Positions 15,871 to 26,790 of a DNA stretch of 32,000 bases are shown here, piece after piece. The stretch spans positions 1,260,001-1,292,000 of the forward strand of contig CP126532.1 in NCBI GenBank assembly GCA_030167145.1, in the 5' to 3' direction. How positions within the stretch are numbered: the first letter of the stretch is position 1; each line of letters starts with the position of its first letter. The position numbers and the translations under genes are program-made. The notes beneath the pieces were generated by a model. It made no database searches. It was not told the DNA's origin and saw nothing but the letters and a program-made list of their open reading frames with translations. The DNA is from Ktedonobacterales bacterium. Lineage in GTDB: Bacteria; Chloroflexota; Ktedonobacteria; Ktedonobacterales; JADMIN01.

Positions 15871-17133
15871 ATGCATGTTGAGCGGTTGCGCCTGACCGAT
15901 TTCCGCAATTACCATGAACTGGATTTGCCACTGCCCAGCGGGCTGGTGGTCTTTACGGGGCGGAATGCACAGGGGAAGTCGAACCTGCTCGAAGCGGTGA
16001 TGCTGGCCGCTACCAGCCGTTCGTTCCGCACACTCAACGACCGCGAGGCGGTGCGCTGGGGCGCGCCGGGGCACTTCGCGCGCATAGATACCACGGTTGC
16101 ACGGCGCGGGGATCCGCTACATGTGGAGGTGGTGCTTTCGGATACCGGGCTGCCCCAGGAGGGAACGCCCGCACGCCCCAGCGCCAGCGATGCGGCGCTG
16201 CCACCAGCGCCAGCCGCGCCCTTTCGCAAGCGCATCCGCATCAATGGCGTGCCAAGGCGGGCGATGGATTTGCTGGGGCAAATTACCGTCGTCGTCTTTG
16301 CGCCCACGGACCTGGATCTGGTGATCGGCTCGCCCGCAGAGCGGCGGCGCTTCCTGGATATGACGCTCTGCCAGGTGCATCCGGCATATTGCCGTGCGCT
16401 GAGCCAGTATCAGAAGATCGTGACGCAGCGCGCGGCGCTGCTGCGGCGTATCCGCGACGGCGAGGAGAGTCCGCATGCGCTGAGCTATTGGGATGACCAG
16501 CTTGCGCGGCTGGCCGTGCCGCTGATTCGCGACAGGGCGGCTTTTCTGCGCGCGGCGGGCGATGCCGCTGCCGAGGTATACGCCGCGCTGGCGGCCAACG
16601 AAGATGTGGACGAGGAGACGGCGACGGGCGAGGAGGAGGGGGAAAGCGGGGAAAGCGGGGAAAGCGACAATGGCCTGCGTCTGGTCTATCGGCCTTCATA
16701 TGATGGCGATGTGGCGGGTGACGAGGTGAAGGCGGTGGCGGCGTTTCGGGCGCGGCTGAGCGAAGTGCGGCGGCGCGAGGTGGCGCAGGGGGCGAATGTG
16801 CTGGGGCCGCACCGTGACGACATCGCGTTTCTGGCCGGGGAGATGGATCTCTCGACGTATGGCTCGCGCGGGCAGCAGCGCAGCGTGGCGTTGGCGCTGA
16901 AGCTGGCGGAGTTAGGCTACATCGAGCGTGAGACGGGCGACCAGCCGATCCTGCTGCTGGATGACGTGTTGAGCGAGCTGGATGCCCAGCGCCGCATTGA
17001 TCTGCTCGCCGCTGTACGCACGCTGGATCAGGTGTTGCTGACGACCACGGATGCTGCAACGCTGCCGCCGGAGACGCTGAACTATGCCCATGTCTACCGG
17101 GTGCGGGGTGGGCGAGTCATGCCGGTGACGTGA
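15871..17133 (+). CDS. recF: DNA replication and repair protein RecF
   Basis: MHVERLRLTDFRNY..., Walker A GRNAQGKSNLLEAV, signature SRGQQRSVALALKLAE, Walker B ILLLDDVLSELD. It contains an acidic low-complexity insertion (EEEGESGESGESD). Confidence 0.92.
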   Translation: MHVERLRLTDFRNYHELDLPLPSGLVVFTGRNAQGKSNLLEAVMLAATSRSFRTLNDREAVRWGAPGHFARIDTTVARRGDPLHVEVVLSDTGLPQEGTPARPSASDAALPPAPAAPFRKRIRINGVPRRAMDLLGQITVVVFAPTDLDLVIGSPAERRRFLDMTLCQVHPAYCRALSQYQKIVTQRAALLRRIRDGEESPHALSYWDDQLARLAVPLIRDRAAFLRAAGDAAAEVYAALAANEDVDEETATGEEEGESGESGESDNGLRLVYRPSYDGDVAGDEVKAVAAFRARLSEVRRREVAQGANVLGPHRDDIAFLAGEMDLSTYGSRGQQRSVALALKLAELGYIERETGDQPILLLDDVLSELDAQRRIDLLAAVRTLDQVLLTTTDAATLPPETLNYAHVYRVRGGRVMPVT

Positions 17134-17153: not shown

Positions 17154-17831
17154 TCAAGCGGCTTTGTCGCGAGTGGCGAAGCCTACATATTGATGCAAAT
17201 CGCCGGGGAGCATGCGCTCGGCTTCGTCGGCGAGGTGGTGTTCGTTGCGCCGCAGGAACAGCCAGAAGGCGAGGACGGTTATTGCGCTCAATCCCAGGGC
17301 GATGTAGCCGATGGGTCCGGTGAGCCGGTACATCACGGTGCCCAGCAGATAGCCACCCAGGCCGTCGAGTGCCGCCCAGACCAGCCCACCCAGAGCATTG
17401 AAGGCGAGAAAGCGCCGCCAGGGCATATGATTGGTTCCGGCCAGGAAGGCAGCCCAGATACGTAGCACAGGAACAAAGCGCCCGAAGAAGACGACTTTGC
17501 CGCCGTGCCTGCGGAAGAGATAGATGCCGAGCTTCAGCTTGCGATCATTCAGATGGATCAGACGACCGTAGCGCCGCAGGAGACGGAAGCCGCATTCGCG
17601 CCCAAGCAGATAGCCCAGGTTATCGCCGAGGATTGCGCCCGCTGTCGCCGCCGCAATCACCAGTGGCAGAGTGAGCTGCTGAGTCGCGCCACTATAGATG
17701 GCCGCCGCCAGGAGAATCGTCTCGCCCGGTAGAGGAATCCCCATGCTCTCGATGGCGACCACGACCAGCACAGCCCAATAGCCATAGGTGGTCAGCAGGT
17801 GCGTCAGATCCAGGTTGGCAAAGTGGTCCAT
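17154..17831 (-). CDS. DedA family (SNARE-associated/VTT domain) membrane protein
   Basis: YGYWAVLVVVAIESMGIPLPGETILLAAAIY and FGRFVPVLRIWAAFLAGTNHMPWRRFLAFNALGG are DedA signatures. The ATG at 17831 (MDHFANLD...) is preferred to the track start. Confidence 0.85.
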   Translation of the reverse strand: MDHFANLDLTHLLTTYGYWAVLVVVAIESMGIPLPGETILLAAAIYSGATQQLTLPLVIAAATAGAILGDNLGYLLGRECGFRLLRRYGRLIHLNDRKLKLGIYLFRRHGGKVVFFGRFVPVLRIWAAFLAGTNHMPWRRFLAFNALGGLVWAALDGLGGYLLGTVMYRLTGPIGYIALGLSAITVLAFWLFLRRNEHHLADEAERMLPGDLHQYVGFATRDKAA

Positions 17832-18163
17832 TGGAACAGTACCCCAGGTGTATCCGGTAAAGGGAACGCGGGTGTGAAGCGCAGCACGCCCAACTCGCAC
17901 AGCGGTCGGGTACGACGGCTGCATGGGAAGCATACCGGGGAAACGTCTTCATTCCGTTACGGGAACGTCGCAATATTGTCGCGGCGGATGGATATGAGGG
18001 AAAGGGCTCATTCTACGAGAGGAGCGGCGGGTGCAAGCAGCAGCAGATCTCAGGCGAGTACGTGAAGATTCGCCGTTTGGCCCTTGTCAGATCGCTGAAC
18101 ATCCGCTATCCTACGTCATGGTAACACGGCTGGATTCGTTCCGCGACAGAGGAAGGGGCGGTT

Positions 18164-19792
18164 ATGGCTGGCAATGGCAGGGTCTTCATCAGTCATTCAC
18201 ACGACGACAACGCGCGCTGTGCGCCGCTGCTGGCGGCGATGGAAGCCTGGGGCGTAGACTATTTCTTCGATACGCAGGGGTTGGGCGCCGGGCAGCAACT
18301 CAACGAGACGATACAGCGCGAGATTGCCACTCGCGATGTCTTCTTGCGCGTCTGCACCGCCGCCACACAGCGATCGTTCTGGATGAGCCTGGAAGTCAGC
18401 GCCTTTCGTGGCTTGCAGGCGGAGGACCAGCGCCGGGGACGGGGTAGCCAGCGGCTGCTGATCAATCTGATTCTCGACGGCGACTATACCCGCGAGCCGT
18501 TTGACAACGCAACGCTCTTCATTGACGCCGCCAGCAGGCCGCGCCCGGTGTGGATGGCAGAATTGGGGCGGGCATTGAATGTTTCGGCTCCCAGGGCGCA
18601 ACGTCCGAAGGTTAGCCGTCGCGAGGTGGTGGCATACGGGGCGGCTGCCGCCGTCACCCTCAGTTCCACCGCAGCGGCAGGGGCGCTCTTTCTCGACTAT
18701 CGCAGTCATACGCAAGGTCCGGTGGCGCAATTGCCGAAGTACTTGCCCGGCAAGCCGGTCTGGACGATCCCCAACGCCAGCCCGAAGAAGGATATACCAA
18801 CGTTGCCCGTGGTCGGTGGTAATACGCTCTACCTGTTGAGCGTGGCGGATGTGACCGCCTACGATATTGGGCATGTCACCAATGGCACGCCCAAGAAGCT
18901 CTGGAGCCAGACCATCACGCCGAAGCAAACCATCGTCTCGCCGGCGGTGTATGGAAGTGTGCTGTATCTGGGTATAGATTCGACGCTGTACGCGCTCAAT
19001 GCCCACAATGGCACGAAGATTTGGACCGTTGACCTGCCTGCAGATGATAACGGGATAGATTCGGGAGCGCTGTTAGTGAACGGCGTGATCTACATCTTCT
19101 CTCAGACGGGCCGCCTCTATACCTTCAGGGCTAAAGATGGCTCGCAGGTGTGGAATGATGTTGTGGATGCGACGGCATACTTACTCGACCACGCTTCTGG
19201 CCCGGCGGTGGATGGGGACAGTGTGTTCATCGGCTCACTGGATCATAACATCTATGCGCTGAATGCCAAAGACGGCTCGCAACGCTGGAAGGTGTTGACG
19301 CGCGGCCCCGTCATCTCGACACCAGCGGTGGTCAACGGCACTGTCTATATTGGCTCTGGTGACAATTACGTCTATGCCCTGAACACCAAAGACGGCTCGG
19401 TCAGGTGGAAGTATTTGACGGGTGAAGCGGTGAATTCAAGCCCAGCCGTGGTGGACGGTGTCGTCTACGTTGCCTCTGACGACCACTATCTCTACACGCT
19501 CGATGCCGAGACTGGCAAGCCGTACTGGCGCGCGCCTATCGGTGACCTCGATGCCTCAACGGGCATCATCGAAAAGGGCGGCCCTGTCACCTGCCAACCG
19601 GCTATCGCGGGCGATGCCGTTTGCGTGATGGACGATCTAAATTTCGTCGTTCGCAGCTACAGCCGCTCCGACGGCGAGTCGCGATGGACTTATGCATCCA
19701 AGAGCGGCTATGAGAACGCGGATCCGTTAGCCGCCAACGGACTTATTCTCTTCGGCTCCGGCGACCAAACCCTCTACGCTTTTGGCGCATAA
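18164..19792 (+). CDS. TIR domain - single TM - PQQ-like beta-propeller protein, paralogue 1
   Basis: The N-terminus GRVFISHSHDD...WGVDYFFDT...GAGQQL...DVFLRVCT...SFWMSLE matches the bacterial TIR (TIR_2-like) pattern. SRR plus the hydrophobic VVAYGAAAAVTLSSTAAAGALFL occupies residues ~151-177. Repeated blades follow, such as NIYALNAKDGSQRWK, YVYALNTKDGSVRWKY and YLYTLDAETGKPYWR. AGAGGAAGGGG lies upstream of the ATG. Confidence 0.8.
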   Translation: MAGNGRVFISHSHDDNARCAPLLAAMEAWGVDYFFDTQGLGAGQQLNETIQREIATRDVFLRVCTAATQRSFWMSLEVSAFRGLQAEDQRRGRGSQRLLINLILDGDYTREPFDNATLFIDAASRPRPVWMAELGRALNVSAPRAQRPKVSRREVVAYGAAAAVTLSSTAAAGALFLDYRSHTQGPVAQLPKYLPGKPVWTIPNASPKKDIPTLPVVGGNTLYLLSVADVTAYDIGHVTNGTPKKLWSQTITPKQTIVSPAVYGSVLYLGIDSTLYALNAHNGTKIWTVDLPADDNGIDSGALLVNGVIYIFSQTGRLYTFRAKDGSQVWNDVVDATAYLLDHASGPAVDGDSVFIGSLDHNIYALNAKDGSQRWKVLTRGPVISTPAVVNGTVYIGSGDNYVYALNTKDGSVRWKYLTGEAVNSSPAVVDGVVYVASDDHYLYTLDAETGKPYWRAPIGDLDASTGIIEKGGPVTCQPAIAGDAVCVMDDLNFVVRSYSRSDGESRWTYASKSGYENADPLAANGLILFGSGDQTLYAFGA

Positions 19793-19892
19793 GCGCGCCG
19801 AGTCTGGCATGGAAACGACACGCAACTACAGGCTGGCAGGCCGTTCGCGTGGTTGCGAGTGGGCAAGAATACTCTGAAGGGGAGGAATGTGC

Positions 19893-21509
19893 ATGCCTGG
19901 GAACGGCAAGGTGTTCATCAGCCACACACACGAAGATAATGAGCGCTGCGCGCCGCTGCTGGCGGCGCTAGATGCCTGGGGTGTGGAGTACTGGTTTGAT
20001 ACGCAGCAACTCGATGCTGGGCAGCATCTCTCGGACCGCCTGCAACAGGCATTGGCGGAGCATGATGTGCTGCTGCGCATCTGCACGCCCGCCGCGCAAT
20101 CGTCGTACTGGATGATGATGGAGATGAACGCTTTTCGCGGCCTCCAGCTCGAAGATCAGCAGCGCAAGCGCCACAATGCGCGTCTCAGCATCAACCTGAT
20201 TCTGGCCCCAGGTTACGTCGCCAGTGCGGCTGACCGCGCCGACATCGTCATAGACGCGATGAATCAGCCTCGCCAACACACCTTCGCGGAGTTGCGCACG
20301 GCGCTGGGTCTCTCTGCCGCGGCGCGTCCGAAGCGTGGAGTCAGCCGACGTGCGGTGCTGGGCTTGGGTGCGGCTGGTATCATCACGGCGGGCGCGCTGG
20401 CAAGCGGCGGTGTGCTGCTCAAAGATCGCAACGAACAACCGGTTCACAAGCCATATCCCAAGCCGAAGACCATCCCGTTCGACAACCCGCAAACGATGGA
20501 CCCGCGCATCAAGTGGTATTTCAAGGCTGGCGATGATCTGGGCATGGGCCTGGCGCTGGCAAATGGTGCACTTGTTCTCAACACACAAGATGGCTTGTAT
20601 GCGCTCAAGTCTGAGGATGGCTCGATTCTCTGGACGAAACTGCAGATACGGGGCGATGCCAGCAGCATGCCGTGGGTCGCGGGCAATGTGCTCTATGTTG
20701 CCGCCAGTGAGGGGTTCACCGGCGGCACATTGTACGCACTGAAGGCGAGCGACGGATCACAGATTTGGACAGCCCAGATAGCCTCATCCTTCGAGGATTT
20801 GCAAATAGCAGTCGCCACTGACCGCATCTTTATGGTCACCGACGATGGGTCCATCATTGCCTATAGCACCGCCGATGGCTCCAAGCAGTGGCGCAGCGCG
20901 ACCGCGATGGCCAAGGGCGCGCGTGGAGCGCCCGCATCGGACGGCAACGCGGTGTATATCGGCTCGCCAGATGGCAACCTCTATGCACTGAGCGCCGCCG
21001 ATGGCTCACTGCTCTGGCAGCATCAGACCGGTGGTGAGATTGCTGACACGCCAGCCATAGCCGGTGGTGCGGTCTACTTCGGCTCGAAAGATCAGCATAT
21101 GTACGCGCTGAACGCCACCGATGGTTCGCTCAAATGGCGCTATGCGGCGGGAAACGAGGTCAACATAGCCCCAACCGTCGCCAAAGGCGTCGCCTATATT
21201 GGTCTGCTCAATAACCTGAATGCATTCGACGCGAATACTGGCAAGCTCCTCTGGCAGGCGCCCGCAGGTGACCCGAATGGTTTCGAGTTTATTGATAGCG
21301 TGGCGGCGACAGTGCTGGGCGATGCGATCTACGCCGTGTCGGATAACTATCTATATGCCTTCAGCGCAGAGCAGAAGAAGAGCGTCTGGCGCTTCAAGTT
21401 GAATAGCATTCTTTCGCTCGACGCGACGATGGTTGCCACCAGCGATACCCTGTACTTCGGCGGCGCCGATCACGCGCTCTACGCGCTGAATACCACGCTG
21501 CCGCAATAG
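19893..21509 (+). CDS. TIR domain - single TM - PQQ-like beta-propeller protein, paralogue 2
   Basis: GKVFISHTHED...WGVEYWFDT...DVLLRICT...SYWMMME, then SRRAVLGLGAAGIITAGALASGGVLL, then blades (LYALKASDGSQIW, LYALSAADGSLLW, MYALNATDGSLKW). GGAGG (19881-19885) lies 7 nt before the ATG at 19893, which is preferred to 19887. Confidence 0.8.
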   Translation: MPGNGKVFISHTHEDNERCAPLLAALDAWGVEYWFDTQQLDAGQHLSDRLQQALAEHDVLLRICTPAAQSSYWMMMEMNAFRGLQLEDQQRKRHNARLSINLILAPGYVASAADRADIVIDAMNQPRQHTFAELRTALGLSAAARPKRGVSRRAVLGLGAAGIITAGALASGGVLLKDRNEQPVHKPYPKPKTIPFDNPQTMDPRIKWYFKAGDDLGMGLALANGALVLNTQDGLYALKSEDGSILWTKLQIRGDASSMPWVAGNVLYVAASEGFTGGTLYALKASDGSQIWTAQIASSFEDLQIAVATDRIFMVTDDGSIIAYSTADGSKQWRSATAMAKGARGAPASDGNAVYIGSPDGNLYALSAADGSLLWQHQTGGEIADTPAIAGGAVYFGSKDQHMYALNATDGSLKWRYAAGNEVNIAPTVAKGVAYIGLLNNLNAFDANTGKLLWQAPAGDPNGFEFIDSVAATVLGDAIYAVSDNYLYAFSAEQKKSVWRFKLNSILSLDATMVATSDTLYFGGADHALYALNTTLPQ

Positions 21510-21598
21510 AGATGTGGGCAGGCCAGCAGGGTGGATGTTGGTTGAGCGACGGCGCGAGCTTTACTTGTGGCTCATAAGCGATGAATGGGGAGAGTGCC

Positions 21599-23257
21599 AT
21601 GTCTGGCAAGGTCTTTATCAGCCATGCCCGCGAGGATTTCGCGCGCTGTGCGCGTCTGCTGAAGGCGCTGGATACCTGGGGCGTGGATTACTGGTATGAG
21701 ACGATGGAGCATGCGGCGGGCCAGCGGCTCACTGAGCAGGCGCAGATGGCGCTCTCGGAATGTGATGTGTTCCTGCGGATCTGCACGCGCGACACGAAGC
21801 GTTCCTATTGGATGGGTATCGAGGCGGGCAGCTTCCTGAGCTTGCAGGCCGAAGACCATCGCAAAGGGCAGGTAGACCGGCGCAAACTCGTCAATCTCGT
21901 GCTCGACCCCGCCTATGTGCGTGAGCCATTCGACGCCAGCGCCACGGTGATTGACGCGACCAATACGGGATGGGCGGGCTGGGTCAACGAACTGCGCCGC
22001 GCGCTGAGCCTGCCGCCGCTGGTGGATATCGTCGCCGTGGCCCAGGAGATTAATCCGCCGCAGCCGGAGGGCATCAGCCGGCGCAAGGCGATTGGGCTGG
22101 CTGCGGCGGGTGCCGTCGTGCTGGCTGCGGCGGGCGCGGGTGGGCTCGCGCTGCTGAAGCATGGCGGCACTACCACAGCGATTCATACGCCCACAGCCAC
22201 GCCGACACCGCCAAGTAGCGACCCGCATCTGCGCTGGTGGTATCAGACGCCTTCACACGCCAGTGTCACGAAGTTCGCCAATGCCATTGATTCCTCCCTG
22301 GCGGTGGCCAATGGCGTGATCTATACCGCAACGGAGGATGGTGGGGTCTACGCTCTGAGCGCCATTGGACTGCAACTGCTCTGGAGCAAGCCACTCGGCA
22401 TTTCGGTCTCGGCTACGCCGCTGGCGGTCTATAACAATCTTGTTTACGTCCGGGTCAATGGCGGAGATTATACACTCTATGCGCTGGATGCCCAGCACGA
22501 AGGCAATGAGGTCTGGCATCTTAATTACACTGCGACGGGGCCAGCGATTGTAGACGGCGTGCTCTATGCCGGAGGTAATGGCCTAGCTGGTGCGGTCATC
22601 AATGGCTTCGATCCTATGACGGGAAAGTCGCTCTGGGGTGGCGCTACCAATGGCTATCCATCGGGTACACCCGCCGTGGCTAATGGCATTGTCTATATCG
22701 GCACGGACAAAGGGTATGTCCACGCGTTCAGCATAACCACGCCACATAGCGAGATATGGAGCGCGAAAGCGGGTGCGGACGCGATTGCGCAGGGGAAAGA
22801 TGGCGCTATCGTCAACTTGCCAGCAATCGCGAACGGTATTGTGTACATTGGCTCAGAAGATCACAACCTCTATGCGTTGGATGCGCTCACTGGCGCGCAA
22901 CGCTGGAAATATCCTACGGGCGACGAGATATTCTATTCCTCACCGGCTGTGGCCAACGGCATGGTGTATGTCGGCTCCGAAGATCACATGATCTATGCGC
23001 TGGACGCGAAGACGGGGACGAAGGTTTGGAGCTATGAGACGAAGGGAAAGGTTGCCTCGTCACCCGCAGTCGTCGGCGCTATGCTCTATATTGGCTCTAG
23101 CGATAGGTCTGTCTATGTGCTGGATGCCAAAACTGGGTCGCTGCTCCACAAATATGCCGTGAGTGGGTCGGTGGTGGTGCAACCGATGGTGGTCAATGGC
23201 ATTCTGTATGCGGGCGACGCCAACGGCATTGTGTATGCCTTCGATGCGGCGCAATAG
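21599..23257 (+). CDS. TIR domain - single TM - PQQ-like beta-propeller protein, paralogue 3
   Basis: GKVFISHAREDF...WGVDYWYET...DVFLRICT...SYWMGIE, then SRRKAIGLAAAGAVVLAAAGAGGLALL, then blades (LYALDALTGAQRWKY, IYALDAKTGTKVWSY, VYVLDAKTGSLL). The ATG at 21599 follows GGGGAGAG. Confidence 0.8.
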   Translation: MSGKVFISHAREDFARCARLLKALDTWGVDYWYETMEHAAGQRLTEQAQMALSECDVFLRICTRDTKRSYWMGIEAGSFLSLQAEDHRKGQVDRRKLVNLVLDPAYVREPFDASATVIDATNTGWAGWVNELRRALSLPPLVDIVAVAQEINPPQPEGISRRKAIGLAAAGAVVLAAAGAGGLALLKHGGTTTAIHTPTATPTPPSSDPHLRWWYQTPSHASVTKFANAIDSSLAVANGVIYTATEDGGVYALSAIGLQLLWSKPLGISVSATPLAVYNNLVYVRVNGGDYTLYALDAQHEGNEVWHLNYTATGPAIVDGVLYAGGNGLAGAVINGFDPMTGKSLWGGATNGYPSGTPAVANGIVYIGTDKGYVHAFSITTPHSEIWSAKAGADAIAQGKDGAIVNLPAIANGIVYIGSEDHNLYALDALTGAQRWKYPTGDEIFYSSPAVANGMVYVGSEDHMIYALDAKTGTKVWSYETKGKVASSPAVVGAMLYIGSSDRSVYVLDAKTGSLLHKYAVSGSVVVQPMVVNGILYAGDANGIVYAFDAAQ

Positions 23258-23297
23258 GATAAGGGGCTGGGCTGAACGGCTGTGCTATAGTCTGAAT

Positions 23298-24128
23298 ATG
23301 AGCAGGAATATTGAACGGACTGAGGCAAGGCCGCTGGTCTCGGTGATCATCCCGACGATGCGGCGTCCGCTGAGGCTGGCGCGGGCGCTGGCGAGTGTGG
23401 CGGCGCAGACGTACCCACAGGTCGAGGTGGTGGTGGTCAACGATGGTGGTATGCCAGTGGAGGCGGTGATCGAGCGGGCGCGACGGGAGGGTGGACGCCC
23501 GATCACGTATCTGGCGCTGGCGGCGAATATGGGGCCATCGGTGGCGCGGAGCCGGGCGATTGCCGTGGCATCGGGCGAGTTGATCGCGTTGCTGGATGAC
23601 GATGACCGCTTTCGGCCGGGGCATCTGGCGCGGCTGGTGGGGGCGCTGACGGCTGACCCTGGGGCGGCGCTGGCGTATGATGATGCGCTGATCCAGGTGG
23701 AGGAGGGAACGGCGGCGGATGGGGAGCCGCGCGTGGTGGCGGAGTGCCGCTTCGGGCTACCATACGATGAGGCGAAGTTCGATATAGATGACTATATCGT
23801 GACCAGCGCGGCGCTGTTTCGACGCGAGGCGTATGAGGCGGCAGGCGGATTCGATGCGACGCTGCCGTTTCTGGAAGACTGGGATCTGTGGCTGCGGCTG
23901 CGCCAGCGGGGGCGGTTGGTGTATGCGCCGGGGGAGATCGGCGTGGATTATAGCTTACGGGCGGAGGCGGGCGATAACCTGGGCAGCACGTTCGATGCGC
24001 GGAGGCGGGCGGCGCTGGATCTGCTCTCGGCGCGCTATGGGCTGCCGCGGCTGGAACCAAAGACGTTTCTGGATGTGGCGCGCGGGCTGGGGTTCGCGGT
24101 GAGGCCGGTTGCGGTGTCGCGCCGGTAA
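23298..24128 (+). CDS. Family 2 glycosyltransferase
   Basis: VSVIIPTMRRP...AAQTYPQVEVVVVNDGG and the DxD region LLDDDDRF. The ATG at 23298 is preferred, since the track start overlaps the previous gene. Confidence 0.85.
   Translation: MSRNIERTEARPLVSVIIPTMRRPLRLARALASVAAQTYPQVEVVVVNDGGMPVEAVIERARREGGRPITYLALAANMGPSVARSRAIAVASGELIALLDDDDRFRPGHLARLVGALTADPGAALAYDDALIQVEEGTAADGEPRVVAECRFGLPYDEAKFDIDDYIVTSAALFRREAYEAAGGFDATLPFLEDWDLWLRLRQRGRLVYAPGEIGVDYSLRAEAGDNLGSTFDARRRAALDLLSARYGLPRLEPKTFLDVARGLGFAVRPVAVSRR

Positions 24129-24288: not shown

Positions 24289-26790
<2,502 letters not shown>

Follow-up and report, generated by a model that had tools for sequence, protein, structure and literature searches.

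Candidate internal twin-arginine signal-anchors in tandem TIR–propeller proteins of a Ktedonobacterales bacterium

Three genes stand in tandem on the forward strand of a 32,000-nt stretch of DNA from a soil Ktedonobacterales bacterium (GenBank assembly GCA_030167145.1, contig CP126532.1, positions 1,260,001 to 1,292,000; the whole stretch is called the window below). Each gene, here termed A, B or C, encodes an N-terminal TIR domain, an S-R-R motif with an Ala/Gly-rich segment behind it, and a C-terminal β-propeller. With moderate confidence, we favour reading the S-R-R motif and its Ala/Gly-rich segment as an internal, uncleaved signal-anchor of the twin-arginine translocation (Tat) route, of the class V type known from FecR, the ferric-citrate sigma regulator of Escherichia coli. 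Coordinates prefixed C1 refer to the genome of the source bacterium, a single 5.07-Mb contig; other positions are in window numbering.

Three tandem TIR–propeller genes

The features of the three genes are listed below. Matches to the Tat motif are to the default regular expression of TatP, RR.[FGAVML][LITMVF] (PMC1182353). Hydrophobicity is given as dG19, the Hessa 2005 biological scale summed over the best 19-residue window; the sum has no position or length terms, making it a rough stand-in for dGapp. Structural entries for B come from an AlphaFold2 (AF2) model, with confidence as predicted local distance difference test (pLDDT).

18164–19792, +, gene A: TIR / SRR-anchor / PQQ-type propeller protein, 542 aa (open reading frame (ORF); Pfam TIR_2 4.4e-11, PQQ_2 4.6e-45)
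18182–18529, +, TIR domain of A, aa 7–122, predicted cytoplasmic (Pfam; S-x-x-W-x-x-x-E motif present, WMSLE)
18614–18622, +, S-R-R of A, aa 151–153; RREVV matches the TatP expression (translation, regular expression)
18623–18694, +, weak h-region and candidate anchor of A, EVVAYGAAAAVTLSSTAAAGALFL, then DYRSH (dG19 +2.80)
18746–19783, +, β-propeller of A, aa ~195–540, predicted extracytoplasmic (Pfam)
19887–21509, +, gene B: TIR / SRR-anchor / propeller protein, 540 aa; the database start lies 2 codons later, giving 538 aa (ORF, Pfam)
19911–20261, +, TIR domain of B (Pfam; AF2 pLDDT ~90 over residues 1–140)
20343–20351, +, S-R-R of B, aa 153–155; RRAVL matches the TatP expression (translation, regular expression)
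20352–20420, +, h-region of B, AVLGLGAAGIITAGALASGGVLL (dG19 +1.90; AF2 pLDDT <50 at residues 157–201)
20421–20444, +, basic C-flank of B, KDRNEQPV, resembling a Sec-avoidance flank (sequence; K/R there in 96% of the family)
20505–21500, +, 8-bladed BamB-like propeller of B (AF2 model; best Foldseek matches BamB, E ~1e-24 to 1e-22)
21581–23257, +, gene C: TIR / SRR-anchor / propeller protein, 558 aa (ORF, Pfam)
21611–21961, +, TIR domain of C (Pfam)
22076–22084, +, S-R-R of C, aa 166–168; RRKAI matches the TatP expression (translation, regular expression)
22085–22156, +, h-region of C, KAIGLAAAGAVVLAAAGAGGLALL, then KH (dG19 +1.13)
22208–23248, +, β-propeller of C (Pfam)

The three proteins share one layout in Pfam and NCBIfam: TIR_2 at about aa 7–127, a linker, SRR, 23–24 uncharged Ala/Gly-rich residues and a PQQ_2 propeller. 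An earlier note on this DNA, made from the letters alone, had placed the S-R-R motif at the three positions given above, about 150 aa into each protein and behind a folded domain; the positions are exact in the three + strand ORFs, with the motif starting at aa 151, 153 and 166, in each case after the TIR domain. Directly behind the uncharged stretch come DYRS in A, KDRN in B and KH in C, and in the N-flank of C the RR pair provides the sole basic residues besides K169.

The TIR_2 scores of A, B and C are 39–53 bits against a Pfam cut-off of 28. Within the S-x-x-W-x-x-x-E motif, the glutamate, E77, is conserved in 90% of the family and S71 in 100%. By score and motif the domain is a bacterial TIR of the NADase type, with a putative enzyme activity. 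The AF2 model of B, built on a 45-sequence alignment, has a mean pLDDT of 86, with a confident TIR domain (residues 1–140) and a confident 8-bladed propeller (205–538), each at about 90; residues 157–201 fall below 50, with no confident transmembrane (TM) helix at the anchor. A Foldseek search with the B propeller returned BamB first and also found tetrathionate hydrolase and designed 'Cake' propellers, with no cofactor-binding propeller prominent among the matches.

An invariant arginine pair before a weak hydrophobic segment

Almost all of the 120 best homologues carry [ILVM]-S-R-R-x-[AVL]-[LI]-G ahead of a weak hydrophobic stretch. We aligned 96 full-length members of the TIR–propeller family (35–60% identical to B, median 40%; 538 columns), and both arginines of S-R-R are invariant in all 96. 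They account for two of the 13 invariant columns, the others including propeller tryptophans and TIR core residues. The position preceding the pair is Ser in 86% of members, the remainder having A, N or T there. Hydrophobic residues (V/A/L/F/I/M) occupy position +3 in 99%, L/I/V/F stand at +4 in 100%, and +5 is G/A in 94%. The resulting family motif, S-R-R-x-[VALF]-[LIV]-[GA], equals the bacterial consensus S-R-R-x-F-L-K apart from the last Lys. Basic residues 4–8 positions upstream of the pair (columns 144–148) are only 10–44% conserved. A cluster serving as a positive-inside determinant would be expected to swap K for R and to shift in position; the RR pair does neither, which argues that it is more than such a cluster.

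The TatP expression covers 97% of its training set yet accepts 23% of RR-bearing TM proteins (PMC1182353). It fits 91 of the 96 family members and all five TIR–propeller genes of the genome, and one of 20 anchors of receptor Ser/Thr kinases encoded by the same genome. An SRR anchor occurs in none of these 20 kinases. Behind the motif, an uncharged stretch of 21–38 residues with charges on both sides is kept in every one of the 96 members. Neither an A-x-A nor a c-region is conserved in the family, and charged residues abut the h-region. An internal translation start, which would make the SRR N-terminal, was considered and rejected: the upstream Met lies 20 aa away in A and 28 aa in B but 88 aa in C, and it is not conserved.

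The segment itself is weak. The dG19 values of A, B and C (+2.8, +1.9 and +1.1) are joined by those of two further TIR / SRR / PQQ genes of the genome, at C1:1890070–1891911 (+3.0) and C1:2885030–2886346 (+2.8), and across the 96 family members the median is +2.17 (range +0.86 to +4.02, all above 0), in an h-region composed of 33% Ala, 18% Gly and 14% Ser+Thr. The 20 receptor-kinase anchors, which have the same N-in/C-out layout, span −5.5 to −0.5, and Sec-like signals in the genome span −2.2 to +1. The five TIR–propeller anchors differ from the kinase anchors with a Mann–Whitney p of 1.9e-5, a value that overstates independence because the five are paralogues. The h-region of A, B and C is too weak to resemble the ordinary anchors of this organism. 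Low hydrophobicity was shown by Tooke et al. in 2017 to define Tat-dependent transmembrane domains (TMDs), and their table includes a Ktedonobacter homologue of Sco3746 whose Tat-dependent TM5 has a dGapp of +1.76 (PMC5449189).

These results bear out three further points of the earlier note. The likeness to the Tat consensus followed by a weak h-region holds across the alignment, the RR pair, whose lack of conservation in orthologues it had named as refuting the idea, is conserved there, and the h-region that it called mildly hydrophobic is indeed, at dG19 +1.1 to +2.8, weaker than the organism's ordinary anchors.

Similar anchors in the same genome

A search of all ORFs in the genome for [STN]-R-R with a weak, uncharged stretch behind it returned, besides the TIR–propeller genes, a Rieske protein, a molybdenum-cofactor (Mo-co) protein, a DUF1800 protein and a zinc-ribbon / WD40 protein. 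Three of them have the following layouts:

C1:102386–103291 (L005:1501–2406), +, Rieske protein, 301 aa, with L-T-R-R-S-L-L-G-A-G at aa 124–133, a weak Ala/Gly h-region and a Rieske 2Fe-2S domain
C1:4008377–4010017, −, polytopic Mo-co protein with V-N-R-R before its last, weak TMD, then Oxidored_molyb and Mo-co_dimer domains (sulfite-oxidase type)
C1:3915980–3917365, −, protein with a zinc-ribbon-like CxxC...CxxC head, I-S-R-R-A-F-V, a weak h-region ending in LLSAC (lipobox-like) and a 7-repeat WD40 propeller

Fe-S and Mo-co domains that lie outside the membrane must travel by Tat, so the Rieske and Mo-co anchors are credible local examples of internal Tat anchors, and they look like the anchors of A, B and C. 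The dG19 of the Mo-co anchor is +1.74; the Rieske, DUF1800 and WD40 anchors have values of +2.2, +2.1 and +3.0. The zinc-ribbon / WD40 protein, too, places a small cytoplasmic head before a Tat-like signal and a propeller. The Mo-co protein has the architecture of Sco3746, which Tooke et al. proved to be dual Sec–Tat (PMC5449189). Ahead of its RR, the Rieske protein has an N-terminal region of about 100 aa without a Pfam match, conserved in 27 of the 29 family genomes with a match; this conservation indicates real coding sequence and a cytoplasmic N-terminal part. With its obligate Tat passenger, this protein looks like a class V Tat substrate in its own right.

As an unbiased test, we took 93 family members encoded by other genomes, with A, B and C excluded, to build an anchor hidden Markov model (HMM) with 38 match states, and ran it with --max, thus with every filter off, on the 4,424 ORFs of the genome. 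The ranking was as follows:

Ranks 1–3: A, 51 bits; B, 54 bits; C, 35 bits
Rank 4: Mo-co anchor, 16.5 bits, the best match outside the family
Rank 5: Rieske anchor, 14.8 bits
Rank 6: DUF1800 protein, 11.3 bits
Rank 7: a signal detected by TIGR01409 (paralogue pair near C1:916600 and C1:917600), 10.3 bits
Lower ranks: zinc-ribbon–WD40 anchor, 7.4 bits; a distant TIR–propeller paralogue, 5.6 bits

Only one match above 7 bits lacked RR, a composition-driven one at 7.7 bits, and no kinase anchor was among the top 40 matches from the 4,424 ORFs. The pair at rank 7 (C1:916600–916686 and C1:917575–917661, both −) consists of two paralogues of about 220–235 aa with T-S-R-R-R-F-L-R, an Ala/Gly h-region and then ARDKPR or ARNHPR; they score 19.9 and 13.1 bits with TIGR01409, and their anchor style is nearly identical to that of the TIR–propeller family. 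A search of 5.8 billion sequences with a 48-residue anchor passed the query alone, the region being too short to reach significance, and a phmmer search with the anchor and propeller of B against 1.84 billion representatives gave a match list dominated by giant multi-propeller proteins.

Other proteins of the genome carry related TIR domains on different bodies. A tandem pair on the + strand (C1:3827369–3828673 and C1:3828724–3829833) combines TIR, a strong TM and a non-propeller ectodomain of about 180 aa without a Pfam match; its TIR domains are the closest to those of A, B and C (E 4e-43 and 2e-37), its TMs have dG19 values of −0.6 and −2.0, and no RR is adjacent. At C1:2192656–2193090 (−) and downstream, a TIR head 56% identical to that of B is fused to parallel β-helix repeats without a TM. 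The RR/weak anchor is carried by the propeller members and not by the other TIR paralogues, which indicates that it travels with the propeller module and not with the TIR domain. Soluble TIR + β-helix genes like that at C1:2192656 occur also in relatives (L009, L010 and L011), and the TIR head of A, B and C has been shuffled among at least three body types. Relatives examined for further TIR / strong-TM paralogues yielded only soluble TIR + β-helix proteins and more family members.

The other PQQ and WD40 propellers of the genome have mostly Sec-like signals or strong TMs, with the zinc-ribbon / SRR / WD40 protein as the sole exception, and this rules out RR anchors as a general trait of the genome's propellers.

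The Tat receptor of the organism

The genome has one tatC (207.6 bits) adjoining a tatA, and two more tatA genes, so that the check for tatA and tatC suggested in the earlier note comes out positive. In a 2026 cryo-EM study, the first Arg of the signal was bound by E15 and F94 of TatC, the second Arg by E103 and the consensus Phe by L9, H12 and L13 (PMC13323110). When the organism's TatC is aligned to E. coli TatC (PDB 9dzz), the equivalents of E15, F94, E103, L9, H12 and L13 are conserved, and Y100 is replaced by Thr. Judged from this alignment, the RR-binding site of the Tat receptor is intact.

Proposed route of insertion and its alternatives

If the segment is a Tat signal-anchor, a protein of the A/B/C type would be made and folded entirely in the cytoplasm, where TatC would bind the S-R-R-x-hydrophobic-hydrophobic motif. 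The weak h-region would then insert as a single membrane span, and the folded 8-bladed propeller would be moved to the membrane's outer face while the N-terminal TIR domain, which requires cytoplasmic NAD+, would stay inside. The weakness of the h-region, and probably the basic residues after it, would keep the signal recognition particle (SRP) and Sec off the segment, in keeping with experiments on the Tat-dependent TMDs of dual Sec–Tat proteins. The outcome would be an N-in/C-out protein with the layout of a Toll-like receptor, and a second class V family after FecR. Two reasons for using Tat can be suggested: a closed 8-blade propeller would not have to fold outside the cell, which is probably monoderm, and Tat could act as proofreading, by which only intact sensors would be coupled to a potentially lethal NADase. 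For A, B and C, we infer Tat dependence, non-cleavage and topology alike from sequence.

Several observations weigh against Tat insertion. The isolated anchors of A, B and C stay below the curated cut-offs of the two Tat-signal HMMs (16.7 bits for TIGR01409 and 22.7 bits for PF10518), the best reaching 9.6 bits (C, TIGR01409), and genome scans with these models at E ≤ 10 gave 17 and 10 sites, none of them in A, B or C. The propeller resembles BamB and has no cofactor, a fold without need for Tat; BamB is exported by Sec, and other PQQ propellers of the genome have strongly hydrophobic Sec-type signals. In a kinase–PQQ homologue from another source, K-S-R-R-K precedes a very hydrophobic TM, so SRR alone is not diagnostic of Tat. 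The K/R found within 8 aa after the h-region in 96% of the family is weakly discriminating, being common after kinase anchors too. Finally, tatC is present in all 15 sampled genomes that carry the TIR–propeller family, a co-occurrence that says nothing, because 116 of 121 genomes of the class have tatC, making it nearly universal there. The HMM scans call for a qualification: they also miss the Rieske and Mo-co internal anchors of the same genome, so their power is low for internal, K-less motifs and their failure here is uninformative rather than negative. Below threshold, the HMM matches of the isolated anchors are mostly to signal regions of Tat substrates (PsbQ, EfeB/tat_substr_1, formate_TAT and TIGR01409), with a recurring CU044_5270 and one sugar phosphatase as exceptions; the sub-threshold match of the Rieske control anchor is MelC1. 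The lack of an evident need for Tat is likewise not decisive, since FecR shows that a class V substrate can do without a cofactor (PMC12036975).

The results for the propeller, the kinase–PQQ homologue and the curated HMMs also favour an ordinary type II (N-in/C-out) signal-anchor, inserted co-translationally through SRP and SecYEG or by YidC, in which RR would be a positive-inside determinant and the Ala/Gly residues would serve helix packing in receptor oligomerization. Bitopic receptors are normally inserted by Sec, and TMs rich in small residues are common among signalling receptors. Against such an anchor stands the behaviour of the arginines: positive-inside residues normally swap K/R and shift, whereas both R remain invariant in 96 of 96 members as their neighbours drift. 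Every dG19 in the family is positive, unlike those of all 20 kinase anchors of the same cell, and recognition by SRP depends on hydrophobicity (PMC1182353). Moreover, where closely related paralogues join the TIR domain to other ectodomains, their TMs are strong. We therefore consider Sec insertion rather unlikely, if a serious contender. The composition of the segment and the absence of a stable helix from the AF2 model would also suit a sequence tuned for regulated intramembrane proteolysis or for ligand-triggered release of the TIR domain, as in site-2-protease substrates such as anti-sigma factors. FecR is both Tat-inserted and cleaved by RseP (PMC12036975), and tuning of this kind would fit either insertion route; it leaves the invariant S-R-R-x-hydrophobic-hydrophobic motif unexplained, no protease gene is linked within the window and the argument is purely analogical, which makes it improbable as the explanation of the segment. 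That the segment spans no membrane, the protein being cytoplasmic or peripheral and SRR with its Ala/Gly stretch a flexible linker, is suggested by the marginal hydrophobicity of A (KD19 1.5, dG19 +2.8), by the low pLDDT at residues 157–201 and by the soluble TIR + β-helix paralogue. A linker would not normally lack charged residues for a length of 24, however, and the charge-flanked uncharged stretch in all 96 members and its resemblance to the Rieske and Mo-co anchors make this explanation very doubtful.

Weighing these points, we find an internal, uncleaved Tat signal-anchor like that of FecR somewhat probable. The hypothesis of a Tat signal-anchor put forward in the earlier note is supported at the level of sequence: the invariance of RR, the TatC site, the TatP expression, the weak h-region and the grouping in the anchor profile speak for it, and the curated Tat cut-offs do not. 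Whether the fuller picture is right seems to us evenly balanced, namely a lineage-restricted family of Toll-like style, with a cytoplasmic NADase-type TIR and an external 8-bladed propeller, inserted post-translationally by Tat through a class V signal-anchor. FecR would then be joined by only one further family of this kind, in which Tat would for the first time be connected with a TIR effector of immune type. Folding proofreading by Tat might then serve as a safety catch, with only correctly folded sensors reaching the membrane. Given the Rieske protein of the same genome, with its conserved region of about 100 aa before an RR anchor, Ktedonobacteria may regularly have class V substrates, which would then be more than an oddity of FecR.

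Distribution and genomic neighbourhood

Of 30 genomes from the organism's own taxonomic family, 13 contain the TIR–propeller family, as does one of seven from a neighbouring family; it was not found in the other 83 genomes of the class that were searched. Tandem genes of this type are seen again within the genus and in other genera of the taxonomic family; the tandem loci compared were these:

G041:C20:5838–10484
G028:C15:98621–103348
G047:C583:1041–5547

The triplet is flanked by recF and a gene for a DedA-like membrane protein (15871–17133 and 17154–17933 (−)) on one side, and by a glycosyltransferase-like ORF and gyrA (23163–24128 and 24289–26790 (−)) on the other, in a neighbourhood that is otherwise housekeeping. 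PADLOC recognised only the TIR domain at the locus, and no known system.

Comparison with known systems

A 2026 review sorts Tat substrates into five classes (PMC13673990). In classes IV and V alike the signal is internal and uncleaved. In class IV, which includes the streptomycete Rieske protein, it follows TMDs inserted by Sec; in class V it follows a folded cytoplasmic domain, and the sole example cited there is FecR (Passmore 2020), which is Tat-inserted through RR79/80 (PMC12036975, PMC13673990). An internal Tat signal of this kind is documented for a single protein. A second, unrelated and strongly conserved family would show that bitopic receptors with a pre-folded sensor can generally be built by class V targeting, and the predicted topology, with TIR inside and propeller outside, would make these proteins transmembrane sensors and not cytosolic defence proteins. 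The genome would also offer a natural test set for Tat, in which one TIR head is found on an RR/weak anchor, on a strong Sec-type anchor and on no anchor at all. If the motif were only a topology determinant, the segment would be an ordinary membrane anchor whose flank happens to be unusually well conserved. A full-text literature search found no paper linking TIR domains to Tat anchors.

FecR is the closest precedent. As predicted for A, B and C, it has a folded cytoplasmic N-domain, an internal RR (R79/R80) directly before a single span and a folded, cofactor-less C-domain outside, and it signals across the membrane. The domains themselves are unrelated, an anti-sigma N-domain and a FecR C-domain as against TIR and an 8-bladed propeller; FecR cleaves itself and is processed by RseP, and its N-domain has about half the length of that of A, B and C. 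FecR is proven to depend on Tat, whereas for A, B and C such dependence is predicted.

The earlier note had instead pointed to the actinobacterial Rieske protein, which is polytopic and needs both Sec and Tat, and to which FecR is to be preferred as a model. That protein, Sco2149/QcrA, and Sco3746 (class IV; PMC3471235, PMC5449189) share with A, B and C an internal RR, a weak final TMD with positive dG, basic residues after the TMD and an N-in/C-out last span, but they have two to four preceding Sec-inserted TMDs and cofactor-bearing passengers. No earlier hydrophobic segment was found in residues 1–150 of A, B or C, the best window being the anchor itself, so they fall outside class IV, which is defined by at least two Sec-inserted TMDs before RR. 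On every sequence feature, A, B and C fit the definition of class V. N-terminally anchored Rieske proteins (class III; PMC13673990) likewise use an uncleaved Tat signal as membrane anchor, as predicted for A, B and C, but theirs is N-terminal, with no folded cytoplasmic domain before it.

In overall plan, the predicted A, B and C proteins recall Toll-like and IL-1 receptors, with an extracellular repeat sensor, a single span and a cytoplasmic TIR domain. The polarity is opposite, the TIR domain of A, B and C being N-terminal (type II); the sensor is a propeller in place of leucine-rich repeats or immunoglobulin domains, the bacterial TIR has the NADase-type glutamate, and homology is limited to TIR. 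The propeller shares with BamB, its top Foldseek match, the 8-bladed PQQ-like fold, but A, B and C have neither a lipoprotein signal nor an N-terminal lipobox, and their fusion to TIR has no BamB counterpart. The BamB equivalog HMMs score A, B and C below threshold, at 105–145 bits against cut-offs of 285 and 423 (TIGR03300, 139–145 against 285.2).

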